Source: Kosakonia oryzendophytica (GTDB lineage Bacteria > Pseudomonadota > Gammaproteobacteria > Enterobacterales > Enterobacteriaceae). Taken from it: a DNA stretch of 64,000 nucleotides. Positions within the stretch are counted from its first letter, which is position 1, and each line of letters opens with the position of its first letter. Positions 4,868-24,427 of this stretch are shown one piece after another. The notes under the pieces are model-generated. The model was not told the DNA's origin, did not search any database, and was given only the letters and a program-made list of their open reading frames with translations. The translations under genes were made by a program, and so were the position numbers. The stretch spans positions 1 to 64,000 of the forward strand of contig NZ_FMAY01000002.1 of assembly GCF_900094925.1 (NCBI RefSeq), given 5' to 3'.

Positions 4868-6616
4868 ATGTCGCGTGGCCTGGAACTGCTGATTGCACAA
4901 ACGATCTTACAGGGCTTTGATGCTCAATATGGGCGGTTTCTGGAAGTGACCTCCGGCGCGCAGCAGCGCTTTGAGCAGGCAGACTGGCAGGCCGTCCAGC
5001 AGGCCATGAAACAGCGTATCCACCTCTATGATCATCATGTGGGACTGGTGGTGGAACAGTTGCGCTGCATCACAGACAGCCAAAGCCCGGATGCCGCTTT
5101 CCTGTTGCGGGTAAAAGAGCACTACACTCAATTATTGCCGGACTACCCACGCTTTGAAATTGCCGAAAGTTTCTTTAACTCCGTCTATTGCCGCCTGTTT
5201 GATCACCGTTCACTGACGCCGGAACGCTTGTTTATCTTCAGTTCGCAGCCCGAGCGGCGTTTTCGCACCATTCCACGCCCGCTGGCGAAAGCATTCTGGC
5301 CGGAGCGAGGCTGGGAGGCACTGCTGACCAAAGTCCTGTCTGATTTGCCGTTGCGTCTGCCTTGGCAGGATAAAGCACGTGATGTCGGCTATATCGCGGC
5401 GCATCTGACGGATGCATTTGGCCCGGAAACCCTGAACCAGTCGCATTTGCAGGTCGCAAATGAGCTGTTCTACCGTAACAAAGCGGCCTGGCTGGTCGGT
5501 AAGCTGATCACGCCTGCCGCGACGCTGCCCTTTTTGCTGCCGATTCATCGCAGTGATGACGGGGAACTGTTTGTTGATACCTGCCTGACCACCCACGCCG
5601 AGGCGAGTATCGTGTTTGGTTTCGCCCGTTCCTATTTTATGGTCTATGCCCCGCTGCCTGCTGCTACCGTGGAGTGGTTGCGTGAAATCCTCCCCGGAAA
5701 GACCACCGCAGAGTTGTACATGGCGATTGGCTGCCAGAAACATGGCAAAACGGAAAGTTATCGCGAGTATCTGAACTACATCAACGCCAGCGATGAGCAA
5801 TTTATTGAAGCGCCGGGGATCCGCGGTATGGTGATGCTGGTATTTACACTGCCGGGCTTCGATCGGGTATTCAAGGTGATCAAGGACGTGTTCCCGCCGC
5901 AAAAGGAGATGAGTGCGGCTCATGTCCGCGCCTGCTATCAGTTGGTTAAAGAACACGATCGCGTCGGGCGCATGGCCGATACGCAAGAGTTTGAAAACTT
6001 CGTACTGGAAAAGCGGCAAATTTCACCGGCATTAATGGCGTTATTACAGGAGCAGGCACCGGGCAAGATCACCGATCTCGGCGATCGCATTGCGATAAGC
6101 CATCTCTATATTGAGCGGCGGATGGTGCCGCTCAACCTGTGGTTTGAGCAGGTCACAGGCCAGCAACTGCGCGATGCGGTGGAAGAGTACGGCAATGCTA
6201 TTCGCCAACTGGCCGCCGCCAATATCTTCCCCGGCGATATGTTATTTAAAAATTTCGGCGTCACCCGACACGGGCGGGTGGTGTTCTATGACTACGACGA
6301 AATTTGCTATATGACCGAAGTGAATTTTCGCGATATCCCTGCGCCGCGTTATCCGGAAGATGAGCTCAGCGCTGAGCCCTGGTACAGCGTTGCCCCTGGA
6401 GATGTTTTCCCGGAGGAGTTTCGTCACTGGCTGTGCGCCGACCCGAAAATTGGCCCACTGTTTGAGGAGATGCACGCTGATTTATTACGTGCTGACTACT
6501 GGCGCGGGCTGCAAATGCGCATCCGCAACGGGCATGTGGAAGATGTTTACGCCTACCGCAGGCGTCAGCGCTTTAGCGTACGCTTTGGCGCAACCGCGTT
6601 ACGGCAGGCAGGATAG
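4868..6616 (+). CDS. aceK: isocitrate dehydrogenase kinase/phosphatase
   Basis: 582 aa ([35 protein letters not shown]...), near-identical to E. coli AceK. Confidence 0.95.
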
Positions 6617-17470: not shown

Positions 17471-19057
17471 TTATGTTGCGCTGCGCACGCTTTCCCAGCT
17501 TAACCCGAAGCGGGCAAGGTATTTGCGCAGGCGATCCGCATCATTTGGGTTCGCCTTTTTCTGCCGGGAAACCGCAAACAGTTCGCGCCCGGCTTCCGAC
17601 AGCGTCTGACTGCGGCGGCAAATGTCGATCACGGTTTCCAACTGGCGTTGATCAAAGAGATCAAGCGTGCTGAGATCCAGCGGCAGCGTGGAAGAGACCG
17701 GTGTGCCGCGCCAGTGATGCTCCAAGCGCTGTAGTTCTTCATCGACCAGCGCGAGCGTAATGCGCCCTTGCTCGGCCAGCGTGGCCATGCGCGCAATCGA
17801 CGTACTGAGTTCGCGGAAATTTCCCCGCCATGCCGCATGTGGTGAACAGGCGAAAGCCAGGTAGCGCTCACGGGCATCTTTATCGAAACGGATTTGTGTC
17901 TGTTGCTCCAGCGCAAAGCGTTGCAGCTCATACTCAATATTGGGGGCAATATCCTCCCGGCGATCCGCCAGCCCCGGCAGCGCGAACGTCCACATATTGA
18001 TACGCGCATAGAGATCTTCACGAAAGCGCCCTTCATCCACCCACTGCTGCATATTCCGGTGGGTTCCGGCAATCAACTGGAAGTCGCTGTGTACTTCTTT
18101 ATCGGCACCGAAGGGAAAAAAGGTTTTCTCTTCAATCGCTTTTAGCAGCATGGCCTGCTCATCCAGCCCTAATTCGGCGATTTCGTCGAGAAACAGTACG
18201 CCGCCATCTGCTTCACGCAGCAGGCCAGTACGTGCCTGTTGTGCGCCCGTAAAGGCACCTTTCACATGACCGAACAGCGTCGACATGGCGTTATCGCCGC
18301 GCAGCGTCGCGCAGTTCACCGCCACCAGTCGCCCCGGCACCAGATGGCGTGACTGGCGTAGCTGGAAAATACGCTTTGCCAGAAACGATTTGCCCGCACC
18401 GGTGGGGCCTGTGAGCAGAATGGGTGCCGTTGAACGCAGCGCGACGCGTTCAATCTGATCGATAAGCCGGTTAAAGGTGGTGTTGCGGGTATCAATGCCG
18501 GATTTGAGAAACGACACCGATTGCTGTTGTTCACGCTGGAAACGGCTGGTTAACGTGGCGTAACGGCTTAAATCGAGATCGATCACCGAACAGACGCCAG
18601 CGGCGATCGCCTCATCAGACGAACCTTTTGCCGCCGGGCCGGTTTGCAACAGGCTGGCGGGCAGATAACGCGCTTCCGTCAGCAAAAACCAACAGATTTG
18701 TGCGACGTGCGTCCCGGTGGTGATATGCACCAGATACTCTTCGTTATCCGTATCGAACGGATAGTGCGTGGCGAAATCGAGAAAGGCGGCATACACCTCT
18801 TCAAAATCCCAGGGATCTTTAATCGTCACCGCATGCATGCGAACGCGGGTATGGGGGGAGAGTTGCGCAATATCGTCCGCAGCCTGTTGCGCCAGCCCTT
18901 TATCCCGCGGTTGATGCAGCAGTTCGAGACGATCGACAGGAAAATCTGGCTGCTGACATAGCCCTACCGTTGGCCGCCATTTGCGAAAGCGGTTTTGCCG
19001 CTTTCCCCGTTTATCCAGCACCGTACCCAGGACACCAATCACCACCCGACGTTTCAT
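17471..19057 (-). CDS. rtcR: sigma-54-dependent transcriptional activator RtcR (CARF - AAA+ - HTH)
   Basis: 528 aa. The N-terminal region aligns with E. coli RtcR (…KWRPT.GLCQQ…DRLELLH…EVYA.L.DFA…ITTGTHVAQICWFLL.EARYLPA.L.Q…). It carries a Walker A GPTGAGKSFLAKRI, the GAFTGA sigma-54 contact motif and the C-terminal NDADRLRKYLARFGLSWE motif. Confidence 0.9.
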   Translation of the reverse strand: MKRRVVIGVLGTVLDKRGKRQNRFRKWRPTVGLCQQPDFPVDRLELLHQPRDKGLAQQAADDIAQLSPHTRVRMHAVTIKDPWDFEEVYAAFLDFATHYPFDTDNEEYLVHITTGTHVAQICWFLLTEARYLPASLLQTGPAAKGSSDEAIAAGVCSVIDLDLSRYATLTSRFQREQQQSVSFLKSGIDTRNTTFNRLIDQIERVALRSTAPILLTGPTGAGKSFLAKRIFQLRQSRHLVPGRLVAVNCATLRGDNAMSTLFGHVKGAFTGAQQARTGLLREADGGVLFLDEIAELGLDEQAMLLKAIEEKTFFPFGADKEVHSDFQLIAGTHRNMQQWVDEGRFREDLYARINMWTFALPGLADRREDIAPNIEYELQRFALEQQTQIRFDKDARERYLAFACSPHAAWRGNFRELSTSIARMATLAEQGRITLALVDEELQRLEHHWRGTPVSSTLPLDLSTLDLFDQRQLETVIDICRRSQTLSEAGRELFAVSRQKKANPNDADRLRKYLARFGLSWESVRSAT

Positions 19058-19192
19058 GTTTATCCTAAAAGATAAAAATAGATATTAAAGGATAAAAAAT
19101 ACCTTCCTGATGCGCAACCGCTCTGCACGTTGTTAAAAATAAAATATTTATTTATCAATGAATTAAAAATTTATCTGGCGGATTTTTTATGT

Positions 19193-19208
19193 TGGCACGT
19201 ATCTGGCA
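19193..19208 (+). promoter_or_regulatory. sigma-54 (-24/-12) promoter of the RtcR-controlled operon
   Basis: TGGCACGtatcTGGCA matches TGGCACG-N4-TTGCA with one mismatch and correct GG/GC spacing. It lies in the rtcR divergent intergenic region, facing the + strand operon. Confidence 0.75.
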
Positions 19209-19319
19209 ATAACTACCCATGTCAGCATGCTGGGTCCGCAGGGGGTAACACTCCCCGCCGGCGCACCGGGAACGGCGTAAGTCGTTATCCAGGGGGCGTT
19301 CCGTCAGCAGAAAGACATG

Positions 19320-19363
19320 TGCGAAAAGTCGGTTTTCTATCGGGTTCGACTCCCGAATTCGCA
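19320..19363 (+). ncRNA. tRNA-like minihelix (acceptor stem plus a canonical T-arm) embedded in the roughly 310-nt leader of the RtcR-regulated operon
   Basis: TGCGAAA … TCGGG-TTCGACT-CCCGA-ATTCGCA. The 5-bp T-stem closes a 7-nt TTCGACT loop (T54-T55-C56-R57-A58 pattern) and is flanked by a 6/7-bp acceptor-like stem. It resembles the tRNA-like modules of bacterial Y RNAs encoded next to rtcB in Salmonella. Confidence 0.45.
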
Positions 19364-19534
19364 ACTCATTATCCCTTGAGATAACCATGATGCAGTACCC
19401 GGTAGCCAGCTGTACATGGCTACCCCCAACGACCGCCGGTAACGGCGCCGGGCGGCAGGCAAAACACCGTTTCCCCTGTGGTTTCGCCCCTGCATCCGCG
19501 GTCGTTAAGGCAAAACACGATTAAGGAGAGAGTC

Positions 19535-20677
19535 ATGACCAATAAAATCACAATACGTAAAGGTCAGTTAGGTCTGCTGGCAAGAGAGGGCGACTATTAT
19601 CAGGTGCTGGAAGCCGGTGAGCACCGCCAGCCATGGTTCAACAAGCCCGAGCTGCTGGTGGTGAATATTGACGGCAGCGACGTGGCGGAAGGCCTGGCGG
19701 AGTACCTGCGTCGTTTTCAGCCGCAATGGGTTGAGCGTTACTGCCTGGTGGCCGATATGGATACGCATGAAGCGGGCGCGCTTTACCGGGATGGCGTATT
19801 GCAGGAGATCCTGCCGCCCTCTACGCGCCGCCTGTACTGGAAAGCGGATGAAACGCTGAAACTGGTGCGCATGGACACGCGTGACGTGAGCGTGCCGACA
19901 GAGATCCTCAATGCGGTGTTACAGCCGAAGCGCGGTGCAACGGTAAAAGGTCGCGATAACATTCTGGCGGTGCAGGTACCGGCATGGCATGTGGGTGTTT
20001 TAAAAGTGGATGGCGCAACACAGGGACTCTTACCGGCAGGTTTAAGCGGTTACTGGAAAGTGAACCACCTGGTCGAAGCGGACGTGGTGGATCTGCGCTT
20101 GCAGGTGCTTGAGGTGAGCGGCCAGGAGATCCTCACCAAAGACAAAGTGACGCTGCGCCTGAACCTGGCGGCGAACTGGCGTTATACCGATGTCCTGAGC
20201 GCGTTTGCGCAGTTAAGCAAACCGCTGGAGCACCTTTATCGTGAGTTGCAGTTTGCCCTGCGTGAAGCGGTGGGAACGCGCACCCTTGATGAGCTGCTGG
20301 AAGATAAGCAAATCATTGATGAAGCCGTTAGCGCGCAGGTGGCGGGTCGTATGGCGGCGTTTGGGATTGAGGTGGCATCGCTGGGTGTTAAGGACATCAT
20401 TTTACCCGGTGAGATGAAAACCATTCTGTCGCGTTTAGTGGAAGCGGAAAAATCGGCGCAGGCCAACGTGATCCGCCGCCGGGAAGAAACTGCCGCGACC
20501 CGTTCGTTACTGAACACAGCAAAAGTGATGGAAAGCAACCCGGTAGCATTGCGCCTGAAAGAGCTGGAAACCCTGGAACGTGTAGCGGAACGCATCGATA
20601 AGATCTCGGTCTTCGGTGGTCTGGATCAGGTATTACACGGCCTTGTGAACATCAAAGGAAGCCATGATGCAAAATAA
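19535..20677 (+). CDS. SPFH/band-7 (stomatin/prohibitin/flotillin-like) domain protein
   Basis: About 380 aa from ATG 19535 (AAGGAG RBS; MTNKITIRKGQLGLL…). It has a long coiled-coil-like SPFH C-terminal part (…LRLKELETLERVAERIDKISVFGG…). First gene downstream of the sigma-54 promoter. Confidence 0.7.
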   Translation: MTNKITIRKGQLGLLAREGDYYQVLEAGEHRQPWFNKPELLVVNIDGSDVAEGLAEYLRRFQPQWVERYCLVADMDTHEAGALYRDGVLQEILPPSTRRLYWKADETLKLVRMDTRDVSVPTEILNAVLQPKRGATVKGRDNILAVQVPAWHVGVLKVDGATQGLLPAGLSGYWKVNHLVEADVVDLRLQVLEVSGQEILTKDKVTLRLNLAANWRYTDVLSAFAQLSKPLEHLYRELQFALREAVGTRTLDELLEDKQIIDEAVSAQVAGRMAAFGIEVASLGVKDIILPGEMKTILSRLVEAEKSAQANVIRRREETAATRSLLNTAKVMESNPVALRLKELETLERVAERIDKISVFGGLDQVLHGLVNIKGSHDAK

Positions 20678-21893
20678 CGATTATCAGTTGCTGGCGCAGG
20701 AGAACACCGCGCCGGTGAAAATGTGGACCCACGGCGTACCGGTAGAACCGGAAGCGCGTGAGCAACTGCTGAAGACGGCAAAAATGCCATTTATCTTCAA
20801 ACACCTGGCGGTGATGCCAGATGTACATCTGGGAAAAGGCTCGACCATCGGCAGTGTGATCCCGACCAAAGGGGCGATTATCCCGGCGGCGGTTGGCGTG
20901 GATATTGGCTGCGGCATGATTGCGGTACGCACCTCGCTGTTGGCGGGGGATCTACCGGACAACCTGAGCGGATTGCGGAGCGCCATCGAGCGGGCCGTAC
21001 CGCATGGCCGTTCGGTGAACCGTGCGAAGCGTGATAAAGGCGCCTGGGAAAATCCGCCCCAGGAAGTGAATAACCACTGGGCTTTGCTGGCACCGCGTTT
21101 TCAGCGTTTAACGGAGAAATACCCCCAATTGTTGAAAACCAATAATCATCAGCATCTGGGTACATTGGGAACCGGTAACCACTTTATTGAAATATGTCTG
21201 GATGAACAGCAGCGTGTATGGGTGATGTTGCACAGCGGGTCGCGTGGTGTCGGGAACGCCATTGGTAATGTGTTTATTACTCTGGCGCAGCAAGATATGC
21301 AGCAGCATATTGCGAACCTGCCGGACAGAAACCTGGCTTACTTTCAGGAAGGTAGCAAACACTATGATGACTATCTGGAAGCGGTGGAGTGGGCGCAGGA
21401 TTTTGCCCGCCATAACCGTGAAGTGATGATGGCGCGGGTACTGTCTGTACTGTCGAAGACCGTCACCAAACCCTTTATGACGCAGCAGGAAGCCGTAAAT
21501 TGTCATCACAACTATGTGCAAAAAGAGACGCACTTTGGTGAAGCGGTATGGGTCACGCGTAAAGGTGCGGTTTCGGCGCAAAAAGGGCAGATGGGGATCA
21601 TTCCTGGTTCGATGGGGGCGAAAAGCTTTATTGTCCGCGGGCTGGGTAATGAAGATAGTTTCTGTTCCTGTAGCCACGGCGCCGGACGGACCATGAGCCG
21701 TACGGCGGCGAAAAAACGTTTTACGGTGGATGATCAGATCCGCGCCACTGCGCATGTGGAGTGCCGTAAAGACAGCGATGTGATCGATGAGATCCCGATG
21801 GCTTACAAAGATATTGATGCCGTGATGGCGGCGCAGGCCTCGCTGGTGGAAGTGGTGCATACCTTGCGTCAGGTGGTGTGTGTAAAAGGATAA
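20664..21893 (+). CDS. rtcB: RNA-splicing ligase RtcB (3'-phosphate/2',3'-cyclic phosphate RNA ligase)
   Basis: 409 aa, strongly similar to E. coli RtcB throughout (…MPFIFKH.AVMPDVHLGKGSTIGSVIPTKGAIIPAAVGVDIGCGM…NHFIEICLDE…CHHNYV…SCSHGAGR…RQVVCVKG). Its start overlaps the SPFH stop by 14 nt. Confidence 0.95.
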   Translation: MMQNNDYQLLAQENTAPVKMWTHGVPVEPEAREQLLKTAKMPFIFKHLAVMPDVHLGKGSTIGSVIPTKGAIIPAAVGVDIGCGMIAVRTSLLAGDLPDNLSGLRSAIERAVPHGRSVNRAKRDKGAWENPPQEVNNHWALLAPRFQRLTEKYPQLLKTNNHQHLGTLGTGNHFIEICLDEQQRVWVMLHSGSRGVGNAIGNVFITLAQQDMQQHIANLPDRNLAYFQEGSKHYDDYLEAVEWAQDFARHNREVMMARVLSVLSKTVTKPFMTQQEAVNCHHNYVQKETHFGEAVWVTRKGAVSAQKGQMGIIPGSMGAKSFIVRGLGNEDSFCSCSHGAGRTMSRTAAKKRFTVDDQIRATAHVECRKDSDVIDEIPMAYKDIDAVMAAQASLVEVVHTLRQVVCVKG

Positions 21894-21910
21894 AAAGAAG
21901 GATAACCAGT

Positions 21911-22702
21911 ATGGAATATCAAGGGGTTGACACCGCCATGCGAGAACGCGTGCGGCAAACGTTATGCGAGGTGGAGCGGAAATACCGCATAAAAGTGCTG
22001 TATGCCTGCGAGTCCGGGAGTCGTGGCTGGGGGTTTGCGTCGCCAGACAGTGACTACGATGTGCGGTTTTTGTATGTTCATGAACCCCAGTGGTATCTGC
22101 GGGTTGAACCGCAGCGCGATGTCATAGAACTGCCCATAGACGATGAGCTGGATGTGTGTGGTTGGGAGTGGCGCAAAGCGCTGGGGTTGCTGAAAAGCGC
22201 TAACCCGACCTTAATCGAATGGCTGGATTCACCGGTGGTTTATCAGCAGGAGGATGCCACGCTGGCGGCGCTGCGTACGCAGGTGCCGCACTGGTTTTCA
22301 CCGGTCAGAGCACGCTGGCATTACTATTCGATGGCGAAGAAAAACTTTCATGGTTATTTGCAAGGGGAAGCGGTGCGGCTGAAGAAATATTTCTATGTGC
22401 TGCGCCCGTTGCTGGCAGTGCGCTGGATAGAAGCCGGCAAAGGAATGCCGCCGATGCGTTTTGCCACTCTGCTGGAGGGCAGCAACCTGGGCGCTCCCCT
22501 GCGTGCGGAAATCGATGAATTGCTAGTGTTAAAACAGCGGGCGGGAGAAGCGCAATACGGCCCGCGACGCCCTGTATTGCACGACTTTATCAAAACGGAA
22601 CTGGCGCGCGGTGAAGTACCGGACGTGCTGCCGGAGAGCCGTAGCGGTAAGATGAGCGATCTCGATCAGTTGTTGTACCAGACCGTGTTGTCTTCTTCGT
22701 GA
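21911..22702 (+). CDS. Pol-beta-superfamily nucleotidyltransferase (GS…DxD motif), of the kind often encoded beside rtcB
   Basis: About 263 aa from ATG 21911 (RBS AAGAAGGA). It carries an NTase signature (…YACESGSRGWGFASPDSDYDVRFLYV…). It replaces rtcA in the operon. No rtcA or rsr ORF exists before the convergent lysC. Confidence 0.65.
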   Translation: MEYQGVDTAMRERVRQTLCEVERKYRIKVLYACESGSRGWGFASPDSDYDVRFLYVHEPQWYLRVEPQRDVIELPIDDELDVCGWEWRKALGLLKSANPTLIEWLDSPVVYQQEDATLAALRTQVPHWFSPVRARWHYYSMAKKNFHGYLQGEAVRLKKYFYVLRPLLAVRWIEAGKGMPPMRFATLLEGSNLGAPLRAEIDELLVLKQRAGEAQYGPRRPVLHDFIKTELARGEVPDVLPESRSGKMSDLDQLLYQTVLSSS

Positions 22703-22788: not shown

Positions 22789-24138
22789 TCACTCAAAGAG
22801 ATTATGGTGCAGTTTCTGCACCACTTGCTCGGCTTCTGCGCCCGGCACCAGGAAGCAGAGGTTATGGCTGGATGCACCGTAACAAATCATGCGGATGTTG
22901 AACGGATCCAACACGCCAAACACCTCTTTACCCACGCCGCACGCTTTCGACAAATCGTTGCCAATCAGCGCGACCAGCGCCAGGTTCTCTTCCACTTCCA
23001 CGCGGCACAGTGATGAGAGTTCTGTCAGCAACCCCTGCGTGAGTAATGTATCGCCCGTAGACGTTGAGCCAGTGGTATCCAGCGTCAGCGCCACGCTCAC
23101 TTCGGAAGTGGTGATCAAATCGACGGAGATGTTATGCCGCGCCAGAATGCCGAATACTTCCGCAAGGAAACCGCGGGAGTGCAGCATATTCAGGCTGTGC
23201 AATGTCAGCAGCGTTTGTTTGCGGCGCAGCGCCAATGCACGGAACAGCGGCGGGTTGTTGGTTTTATTGCACACCAGCGTGCCACCGGCTTTAGGCTCTT
23301 TGCTGGACCCCACAAATACCGGGATATCACTGCGTACCGCAGGCAGCAGTGTGGCAGGATGCAGCACTTTCGCACCAAAGGTCGCCATTTCTGCCGCTTC
23401 TTCAAAGGCGATTTCATCAATACGTTTTGCCGCTGGCACGACACGCGGATCGGTGGTGTAAATACCGGGGACGTCGGTCCAGATGTCGACACGCGTTGCG
23501 TGCAACGCTTCACCGAGAAGCGCGGCGGTGTAGTCGCTGCCGCCACGGCCCAGCGTAGTGGTGCGACCTTTGGCCTCGCTTCCGATAAAGCCCTGAGTGA
23601 TCACCAGACCGTCGGTAAGGCGAGGTGCAAGCTGCTGCGCAGTCAGTTCCGCCAGCGCAGGGACATCCGGCTCGGCGCGGCCAAAACGATCGCTGGTACG
23701 CATGACTTTACGCACATCAAACCACAGCGCCTGTACACTGCGTTCACGCAGCACTTCAACAAACAGCAGGGTCGACATCAACTCGCCGTGGCTAACCAGT
23801 TCATCGGTCAGGGCGGTGGAGGTAGCAAGCGAGGCAGCTTCTGCAAGCGTGCTGATGTTTTCCAGCAGGCGTTCAATCTCTTCGCGGATCACGTCCGGGT
23901 TGGACATCCGCTCCAGAATATCGAACTGAATTTTACGAATAGCATCGAGTTTGACGAACCGTTCACTGGCCTCCAGTCCTTCTGCCAGCGCGACCAGCAG
24001 ATTGGTCACGCCCGCAGAGGCGGAGAGCACCACCAGGCGAACATCGGAATCGGAAAGCACCACGTCCGCACTACGGTTCATGGCATCATAATCGGCAACG
24101 CTGGTGCCGCCGAATTTGGCGACAACTAAATTAGACAT
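22789..24138 (-). CDS. lysC: lysine-sensitive aspartokinase III
   Basis: 449 aa (MSNLVVAKFGGTSVADYDAMNRSADVVLSDSDVRLVVLSASAGVTNLLVALAEG…), near-identical to E. coli LysC. Confidence 0.95.
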   Translation of the reverse strand: MSNLVVAKFGGTSVADYDAMNRSADVVLSDSDVRLVVLSASAGVTNLLVALAEGLEASERFVKLDAIRKIQFDILERMSNPDVIREEIERLLENISTLAEAASLATSTALTDELVSHGELMSTLLFVEVLRERSVQALWFDVRKVMRTSDRFGRAEPDVPALAELTAQQLAPRLTDGLVITQGFIGSEAKGRTTTLGRGGSDYTAALLGEALHATRVDIWTDVPGIYTTDPRVVPAAKRIDEIAFEEAAEMATFGAKVLHPATLLPAVRSDIPVFVGSSKEPKAGGTLVCNKTNNPPLFRALALRRKQTLLTLHSLNMLHSRGFLAEVFGILARHNISVDLITTSEVSVALTLDTTGSTSTGDTLLTQGLLTELSSLCRVEVEENLALVALIGNDLSKACGVGKEVFGVLDPFNIRMICYGASSHNLCFLVPGAEAEQVVQKLHHNLFE

Positions 24139-24214: not shown

Positions 24215-24425
24215 ACAAAACAACTACGATTTCCCCAGAAGTGCTCCACCTTGCGAAACGCCCGACTGGGAACGTTTCTGGTGACAACCCAGAGGATTCA
24301 GCCTCTGTAGCCGATAACAAACGCTGCCAGGCGTTTTGCTATCTCGGCGTTGCTCCCCCTCAGGTGTTTTCTTCAGTTTGGCTCTTCCAACACCGTGTAC
24401 CTGGGCAACGCGCCTCTTCTGGCTA
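24215..24425 (-). ncRNA. lysine riboswitch (L-box) in the lysC leader
   Basis: The minus-strand sequence …AGAGGCGCGTTGCCCAGGTACACGGTGTTGGAAGAGCC…CTACAGAGGCTGAATCCTCTGGGTTGTCACCAGAAACGTTCCCAGTCGGGCGTTTCGCAAGGTGGAGCACTTCTGGGG… matches the E. coli lysC L-box aptamer nearly base for base. Confidence 0.85.
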
Positions 24426-24427
24426 TT

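Follow-up and report, generated by a model that had tools for sequence, protein, structure and literature searches.

A 44-nucleotide tRNA-like module in the leader of an SPFH-rtcB-rlaP operon of Kosakonia oryzendophytica: a probable reduced form of b7a-tRNA

Why should the leader of an operon encoding an RNA ligase contain what looks like the top half of a transfer RNA (tRNA)? This question is raised by a stretch of 64,000 nucleotides (nt) from Kosakonia oryzendophytica (assembly GCF_900094925.1, contig NZ_FMAY01000002.1, positions 1 to 64,000 of the forward strand; henceforth the window), in which the gene for the sigma-54 activator RtcR lies divergent to an operon encoding an SPFH (Band-7) protein, the ligase RtcB and the nucleotidyltransferase RlaP (Table 1). 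The usual spacing from the -12 element predicts a transcription start near 19219, and hence a leader of ~316 nt before the ATG at 19535. About 100 nt into this leader lies a 44-nt module (19320-19363) that reads TGCGAAA / AGTCGGTTTTCTA / TCGGG-TTCGACT-CCCGA / ATTCGCA, i.e., the two strands of an acceptor-like stem, a linker and a T arm. A preliminary description of the window, made from a single sequence, had reported this module at exactly these coordinates, including its canonical T arm and an acceptor-like stem of 6/7 pairs, and had placed it within a sigma-54 leader upstream of the SPFH and rtcB genes; we recovered both the module and a conserved promoter at 19193-19208. As set out below, the module is very probably a conserved tRNA-like element homologous to b7a-tRNA, the RNA predicted to adjoin Band-7 and RtcB genes.

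We considered first what the window alone can tell. The T arm comprises a stem of five base pairs (bp; TCGGG 19340-19344 with CCCGA 19352-19356) and the loop TTCGACT (19345-19351), which is canonical throughout (U54, U55, C56, G57 as R57, A58, N and U, with the closing pair G53-C61). Six pairs make up the acceptor-like stem, which has an A.A mismatch where it adjoins the T stem. In the linker, a GG at 19331-19332 forms part of AGUCGGUU, which appears to resemble the D loop AGUCGGGUA of the complete tRNA-like units of other bacteria (see below), and we propose that this GG could dock with the T loop as G18-G19 do in tRNA, giving a tRNA elbow. The window contains one T arm combined with an acceptor that pairs at 6/7 or more positions, against 0.075 expected, and 15 of 200 shuffled windows contain at least one. 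A covariance model of the full b7a unit (R1) had a sole match in the 64 kb (15.1 bits, E 0.02), namely the T arm at 19338-19356; this match was local and covered model positions 47-65 only. The folding energy of the whole leader had a z-score of -1.61 relative to shuffles. The earlier statement that chance occurrence is low is therefore only suggestive for the single sequence and owes its force to conservation and covariation across loci: given the shuffle counts and the ordinary stability of the module, it is the comparative data that settle its reality.

To obtain such data, we searched one genome per species with the SPFH protein, which gave 80 loci (the full set exceeds 563 matches) and, with one rare Escherichia coli variant added, a set of 81 spanning Enterobacterales, Pseudomonas, Burkholderia and many betaproteobacteria. 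The gene order rtcR - leader RNA - SPFH - (rtcB) - (rlaP) was conserved in most of them, and a sigma-54 element was found upstream of the tRNA-like unit or units in 68. In about 70 of the 81 loci, the region 185-320 nt upstream of the SPFH gene contained a T arm (defined as NNNNN-TTCRANN-NNNNN with at least four stem pairs). Its stem came in compensatory variants (UCGGG/CCCGA, UCAGG/CCUGA, GCGGG/CCCGC, GUAGG/CCUAC and AUAGG/CCUAU), and G.U pairs also occurred, in keeping with an RNA of + strand sense. Across 17 enterobacterial leaders the T-arm core GGGTTCGAnTCCC was invariant but for one compensatory change of a G-C to an A-U stem pair in three sequences, making it one of the best conserved blocks of the intergenic region; the SPFH proteins of these 17 loci are 63-83% identical. 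On these sequence comparisons, support for the T stem is solid. The comparison with homologous leaders that the preliminary description had suggested thus found both conserved stems and compensatory changes.

The same set contained operons of the order rtcR - leader - SPFH - rlaP without rtcB (L002, L003, L005, L006, L007 and L013-L016, from Citrobacter, Klebsiella, Superficieibacter, Mangrovibacter, Brenneria and Lonsdalea), meaning that the constant core of the system consists of RtcR, the leader RNA and the SPFH protein and does not include the ligase.

Outside the Enterobacterales, the T arm belongs to something larger. In Pseudomonas, Burkholderia and betaproteobacteria it forms part of one or two complete tRNA cloverleaves: R1 scored 56-87 bits in 52 of the 55 non-enterobacterial loci, the Rfam tRNA model gave the full units 33-60 bits, and ARAGORN called them tRNAs, though their anticodons were unrelated (Ser, Leu, Pro, Met, Thr, Val, Asn) or their loops abnormal. 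When 48 of these sequences were aligned as a cloverleaf, 93% of cells were paired and covariation was 0.423, compared with 0.165 in shuffled alignments (none of 500 reached the observed value) and at most 0.12 with slid partners. All five pairs of the anticodon-like stem covaried, and the loop that it closes was not conserved, being often a UUCG or GAAA tetraloop. The arbitrary anticodons and tetraloops mark the full units as non-decoding tRNA mimics.

In many loci a second unit lies directly upstream of the first. The upstream unit of Pseudomonas is again a full cloverleaf, abutting the first with no spacer. At L027 (2571-2716), L031 (2572-2716) and other Pseudomonas loci the acceptor 3' strand of the distal unit continues without a break into the proximal one, and ARAGORN calls of the tandem units overlap by 3 nt; neither unit can thus accommodate a discriminator base or CCA. 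The distal betaproteobacterial unit is a minihelix consisting of a 7-bp acceptor, a GG linker of 13-26 nt (13 nt in several cases) and a T arm, an architecture shared by the window module.

The Enterobacterales examined carried only reduced forms, without D stem or anticodon arm, which Rfam and ARAGORN both miss; no enterobacterial locus examined had a full-length match to R1, the best score being 22 bits. A minihelix form was found in the window and in Superficieibacter, Franconibacter, Siccibacter, Mangrovibacter, Erwinia, Brenneria, Lonsdalea, Proteus and Providencia. The acceptor helix of enterics is short (4-6 bp), and the linker GG(U/T) was kept in 26 of 27 minihelix-type units. To quantify stem support, we aligned the stems of 26 such units without their linkers, the 5' register of the betaproteobacterial units being chosen by hand. 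In this alignment 89.1% of cells paired (64.4% when shuffled) and covariation was 0.694, compared with 0.210 for shuffles (0/500) and no more than 0.166 for slid partners. Perfect 7/7 acceptors, counted in a register-free test, occurred in 9 of the 27 units, all with different sequences, against a mean of 0.97 and a maximum of 6 in 2000 shuffles. Within the Enterobacterales, a contiguous run of at least five pairs was present in 9 of 11 sequences, where 2.0 were expected (0/5000 shuffles). Individual in-register compensatory changes in the acceptor were seen among close relatives (GCAAA/UUUGC in L010, GCGAAG/CUUCGC in L017), including a G-C pair that becomes A-U in Siccibacter and the A.A mismatch that becomes G-C in Erwinia. 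Within the enterics, support for the acceptor stem is moderate.

An RNA of this kind has been predicted before. As described by Wang et al. (2018, bioRxiv 10.1101/312249, citing Burroughs & Aravind 2016), b7a-tRNA adjoins Band-7 and RtcB genes, strongly resembles tRNA, is experimentally unvalidated and occasionally swaps with YrlA/Rsr; the same text presents the SPFH/Band-7 protein and its tRNA-like RNA as a proposed counterpart of Ro60 and YrlA beside RtcB. The window module likewise adjoins SPFH/Band-7 and RtcB genes downstream of RtcR, is tRNA-like and non-decoding, and has a T arm that is homologous to, and syntenic with, the full units of relatives. It differs in having neither D stem nor anticodon arm, b7a-tRNA being characterised for this comparison by the citing paper's description only. 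On that description the module is not a new class: a tRNA-like RNA had been predicted for such operons before, and the module is a reduced relative of it. Since it does not resemble an authentic tRNA but shares the genomic context and the homology, we file it as a variant of b7a-tRNA and not as a plain member.

One of the full units has been measured. PA4581.1 of P. aeruginosa PAO1, annotated as 'tRNA-Arg4', lies between rtcR (PA4581) and the SPFH gene PA4582 (the SPFH protein of this locus is PaFlo8), lacks CCA and was detected by quantitative reverse-transcription PCR at about half the level of ordinary tRNAs (2026 paper). It shares with the window module its intergenic site, its operon type and the absence of an encoded CCA, and differs from it in being a full cloverleaf annotated as a real tRNA, of which the Pseudomonas loci examined here carry one or two.

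What might such a module do? Overall, we lean towards an enterobacterial reduced b7a-tRNA that acts as a protein partner or handle, and regard this as the best available explanation; the protein-partner mechanism taken by itself is drawn by analogy and is tentative. RtcR is known to be activated by tRNA fragments with cyclic phosphate ends. In the mechanism we envisage, RtcR activated by fragments of damaged tRNA would enable the sigma-54 polymerase to transcribe the leader together with the operon; the position of the promoter, the conservation and the structure are established, and transcription, processing and binding are predicted. The T arm or elbow would then be recognised by proteins that read tRNA, such as TruB, TrmA and possibly RNase P (at ~19319/19320), and above all by the SPFH protein of the operon, a step that we infer from tRNA enzymology and gene association. 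For TruB and TrmA, a T arm on its own is an acceptable substrate. The module, whether set free or left in the transcript, might serve as the RNA partner or handle of an SPFH oligomer in repair by RtcB and RlaP, by analogy with YrlA and Ro60. What evolution has retained is consistent with such a role: the T arm is always kept, the GG and a short acceptor often, and the anticodon loop never, a pattern that points to protein recognition of the tRNA elbow or top half and argues against both decoding and mimicry of an anticodon-nuclease target.

Several observations weigh against this explanation. The isolated 49-mer folds as proposed, but its stability is ordinary (z = -0.36 relative to shuffles). 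The search with Rfam Y RNA and tRNA models that the preliminary description had suggested returned no match in the leader: nothing relevant was found there at the gathering score in a scan of the whole 64 kb, YrlA (RF02553) included, and at E<=10 neither tRNA (RF00005) nor YrlA matched within 19050-19600. ARAGORN called neither a tRNA nor a transfer-messenger RNA (tmRNA) within 19000-19700. Furthermore, Citrobacter, Klebsiella, Phytobacter, Enterobacter and three E. coli strains have a T-arm-only form, with 3-4 bp in the T arm and no upstream acceptor strand, the downstream strand pairing into a separate hairpin; this means that either only the T arm is strictly required in this order or the element is decaying. 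Which of the two enteric forms is present did not correlate with the presence of rtcB. When 11 enterobacterial sequences were aligned with MAFFT and left unadjusted, acceptor covariation was 0.239, compared with 0.241 for the control slid by +1; MAFFT had set 5 of the 11 5' strands out of register, so that support for the enteric acceptor stem rests on the register-aware tests. The full units themselves usually have their outer 1-2 acceptor pairs unpaired and encode no CCA, which would make them poorer substrates for RNase P or the CCA-adding enzyme than a real tRNA. Finally, the level of PA4581.1 was unchanged when Rtc proteins were induced (2026 paper), a misfit with simple co-expression.

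The main rival, which we judge unlikely, sees in the module a cis-acting processing or stability signal. Here the top half would recruit RNase P (or RNase E or Z), trim away the 5' domain of the leader and protect the 5' end of the mRNA, with no RNA acting in trans. This would agree with the module always lying within the leader, between promoter and first gene, with no terminator after it (no terminator-like site was found in the window leader), with the other conserved helices that flank it, and with the tandem Pseudomonas units, which abut without a spacer as in processed tRNA operons. Moreover, the smallest classical substrate of RNase P is a minihelix of acceptor and T arm, and mRNA processing elsewhere makes use of tRNA-like signals, e.g., MALAT1/mascRNA. 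On the other hand, the D arm and anticodon-like arm that covary outside the Enterobacterales exceed what a cleavage signal needs, the open outer acceptor pairs and missing CCA count against it as well, and according to the literature (Wang et al.) the element is interchangeable with YrlA, a trans-acting, protein-bound RNA.

Less likely still is a decoy or sensor for tRNA-targeting nucleases, in the manner of the substrate mimic or cleavage sensor that the preliminary description had raised: the module would be cut by such nucleases or would titrate them, and its 2',3'-cyclic phosphate fragments, or their repair by RtcB, would feed back on RtcR. The operon does encode RtcB, and in vitro RlaP can add nucleotides to cleaved tRNA at the 3' end. 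We nevertheless consider this improbable. The window module has no anticodon arm, and the anticodon-like loop of its relatives, with its varying triplets and frequent tetraloops, is not conserved and cannot mimic the target of an anticodon nuclease. YrlA, which has been proposed as a possible nuclease inhibitor, was not cleaved in Salmonella. A decoy could work only for toxins that attack the T loop or the acceptor, which is speculation.

Could the module instead be an evolutionary relic, i.e., an inherited full b7a-tRNA that is decaying in the Enterobacterales and that here has no role beyond being part of the leader? A stepwise reduction from the cloverleaf outside the order, through the minihelix of some genera, to a T arm of 3-4 bp would fit decay, as would the short acceptor pairing of enterics. 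We hold this to be very improbable, given that GGGTTCGAnTCCC is near-invariant across the 17 leaders despite the limited identity of their SPFH proteins, that both stems are maintained by compensatory changes and that the linker GG is retained. Two further readings, a fortuitous likeness and the 3' remnant that an integrating element leaves of a tRNA gene at its att site, are excluded: the combined motif is only modestly unlikely in a single sequence, as the shuffles show, but the module is syntenic in ~70 loci from three proteobacterial classes, has a 5' acceptor strand and covarying stems, and lies downstream of a conserved promoter. The att-site reading and two small open reading frames across the region (19130-19384, + strand; 19155-19388, - strand) were rejected: the conserved positions track RNA helices, whose changes are compensatory, and indel lengths are not multiples of three.

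Returning to the b7a-tRNA reading, we compared the module with three known kinds of RNA. YrlA (RF02553; Salmonella rsr-yrlBA-rtcBA) is similarly under RtcR/sigma-54 control, linked to RtcB and a non-decoding tRNA mimic, and its conserved part consists of T arm, D arm and elbow; it differs in its Ro-binding stem and permuted layout. The preliminary description had drawn the analogy with Salmonella Y RNAs and remarked on the missing Ro60 (Rsr) gene. The analogy is the literature's own (Wang et al. 2018), and we also found no Ro60/Rsr (TROVE) gene in the operon or among its flanking genes (RtcR, an SBF transporter and lysC). Membership in the YrlA family was ruled out, with no model match in the leader and no Rsr gene at the operon. 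A sub-threshold Rfam match to YrlA was seen in Pseudomonas locus L027 (2617-2668, + strand; 33.6 bits against a gathering score of 69, E 1.6e-5); it spans the distal T arm to the proximal D arm, where the order of T arm, acceptor strands and D arm mimics the permuted layout of YrlA.

The tRNA-like domain of tmRNA and tRNA minihelices have an acceptor on a T arm, a short D-loop analogue and no anticodon arm. The acceptor/T-arm half is the part of tRNA that RNase P, TruB, TrmA and the CCA-adding enzyme read. The window module likewise stacks an acceptor on a T arm, with a short D-loop analogue and without an anticodon arm, but it has none of the encoded or added CCA end, the G3.U70 alanine identity pair and the mRNA-like domain of tmRNA. 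A tmRNA domain was ruled out accordingly, ARAGORN being negative and the acceptor UGCGAAA/AUUCGCA having no G3.U70, and so was an authentic tRNA gene (RF00005), no cloverleaf with an anticodon arm being detected.

The module defines the minimal conserved core of the SPFH-associated tRNA mimic, and this core occurs in genetically tractable relatives of E. coli. The enterobacterial forms amount to a natural deletion series that shows what selection keeps, which argues for the elbow as the functional core. The pairing of an SPFH/Band-7 protein with a tRNA-like RNA was predicted in 2016 and is untested as far as the searchable literature shows. We further entertain, as a doubtful extension, that the 44-nt elbow module (T arm, GG linker and short acceptor) is the core of a new class of RNA-protein complex formed with a soluble, stomatin-like SPFH ring or cage. 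If true, this complex would parallel Ro60 and Y RNA, and the ~316-nt leader, as a regulatory RNA of several domains, would link it to expression of the repair operon, possibly including remodelling of the module ends by RlaP or RtcB. A more practical consequence concerns annotation: standard tools miss the reduced forms, and the full forms are annotated as ordinary tRNAs with arbitrary anticodons, as in the case of PA4581.1.

The rest of the leader is structured as well (Table 1). RNAalifold applied to 16 enterobacterial leaders recovered a 5' three-helix domain, the T arm, a hairpin at 19401-19424 and a long 3' domain; none of the conserved leader domains matched an Rfam family. Within the 5' domain are hairpins at 19238-19258 (GGGG/CCCC) and 19269-19302 (GGAACG/CGUUCC), and a homologous domain occurs in the leaders of Pseudomonas and betaproteobacteria. 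Just after the tRNA-like unit or units, the motif GCAGUACCCGSCGG was found in enterics of the minihelix form (the window, L006, L009 and L010), Pseudomonas, Burkholderia and betaproteobacteria, i.e., in three proteobacterial classes, and was absent in the T-arm-only enteric leaders; it is partly single-stranded in consensus folds. Of the further hairpins named in the preliminary description, GTAGCC...GGCTAC proved conserved and covarying, though at 19401-19424 and not at 19411-19432, while CCGG-TAACGGCG-CCGG (19436-19451) is not part of the consensus, in which CGACCGC (19430-19436) pairs with GCGGTCG (19498-19504) instead. A long-range helix between 19285-19297 and 19374-19388, seen in a single-sequence fold, was not kept in the alignments and was dropped.

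Table 1 Features of the rtcR - SPFH-rtcB-rlaP region in the window (positions within the 64,000-nt stretch)
Feature	Position	Strand	Basis or remark
rtcR, divergent sigma-54 activator with CARF-type RtcR domain	17471..19057	-	Pfam RtcR and Sigma54_activat; NCBIfam RNA_repair_RtcR, 832 bits
Sigma-54 promoter TGGCACGTATCTGGCA, TGGCACG-N4-TGGCA	19193..19208	+	GG 19194-19195, GC 19206-19207
5' domain of leader, outer helix GCUGG 19229-19233 / UCAGC 19304-19308	19229..19308	+	RNAalifold, 16 enterobacterial leaders
Acceptor-like stem, 5' strand UGCGAAA	19320..19326	+	Sequence; in-register compensatory changes in relatives; contiguous pairing in Enterobacterales above 5000 shuffles
13-nt linker AGUCGGUUUUCUA (AGTCGGTTTTCTA)	19327..19339	+	Stands in for D arm, anticodon arm and variable loop
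T arm, 5-bp stem UCGGG/CCCGA with 7-nt loop UUCGACU	19340..19356	+	Covariance-model match; syntenic in relatives
Acceptor-like stem, 3' strand AUUCGCA	19357..19363	+	Sequence; followed by ACUC, without encoded CCA
Motif GCAGUACCCGG (GCAGUACCCGSCGG)	19392..19402	+	Conserved downstream of tRNA-like unit(s)
Hairpin GGUAGCC/GGCUACC	19401..19424	+	RNAalifold columns 201-206 with 216-221; compensatory changes, up to 7/16 sequences per pair
Long 3' domain, closed by CGACCGC 19430-19436 / GCGGUCG 19498-19504	19430..19504	+	RNAalifold columns 230-262 with 300-332, covarying
SPFH/Band-7 gene (slipin, stomatin-like), first in operon	19535..20677	+	Pfam Band_7; Shine-Dalgarno AAGGAG 19523-19528
rtcB, RNA ligase	20664..21893	+	Pfam RtcB, 442 bits
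rlaP, PF10127 nucleotidyltransferase	21878..22702	+	Pfam RlaP, 312 bits

The SPFH protein matched stomatin over residues 181-377 only; residues 1 to about 180 had no match in Pfam, NCBIfam or PDB sequences, and no transmembrane segment was obvious in the translation. It may be a soluble protein with an uncharacterised N-terminal domain that possibly binds RNA. The genes of the operon overlap, SPFH and rtcB by 14 nt (20664-20677) and rtcB and rlaP by 16 nt (21878-21893), and these stop/start overlaps suggest translational coupling of all three.

In six betaproteobacterial loci, the tRNA-like units are preceded on the same strand, at a distance of 0.9-2.6 kb, by clusters of canonical tRNA genes (Asp, Phe, Arg, Pro, His, Glu, Gln; L042 1142-1702, L051 1237-1697, L075 1460-1801, L081 1491-1753, L077 80-384 and L043 104-176). 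Both rtcR and the sigma-54 promoter are absent from five of the six, the upstream DNA of L043 being too short to judge, and the tRNA-like RNA may be co-transcribed with the tRNA array there. The rare E. coli variant (L001; strain ABW_A19, NZ_CP067307.1 162350-172516) is a cut-down locus adjoining lysC, and just 3 of 5426 complete E. coli genomes contain one of this type. Its parts are a sigma-54-like promoter TGGCACGATTCTCGCA, a homologous leader (~5056-5370) with a 3-bp T arm, and genes for a slipin and an RlaP-like nucleotidyltransferase, with a zeta-toxin gene alongside. Neither rtcR nor rtcB adjoins it, and its expression might depend on RtcR acting in trans from the usual rtcBA locus. In the window, a lysine riboswitch (RF00168, 92.8 bits; 24231-24426, - strand) precedes lysC, which encodes a lysine-sensitive aspartokinase (22789-24138, - strand), an ordinary known arrangement.

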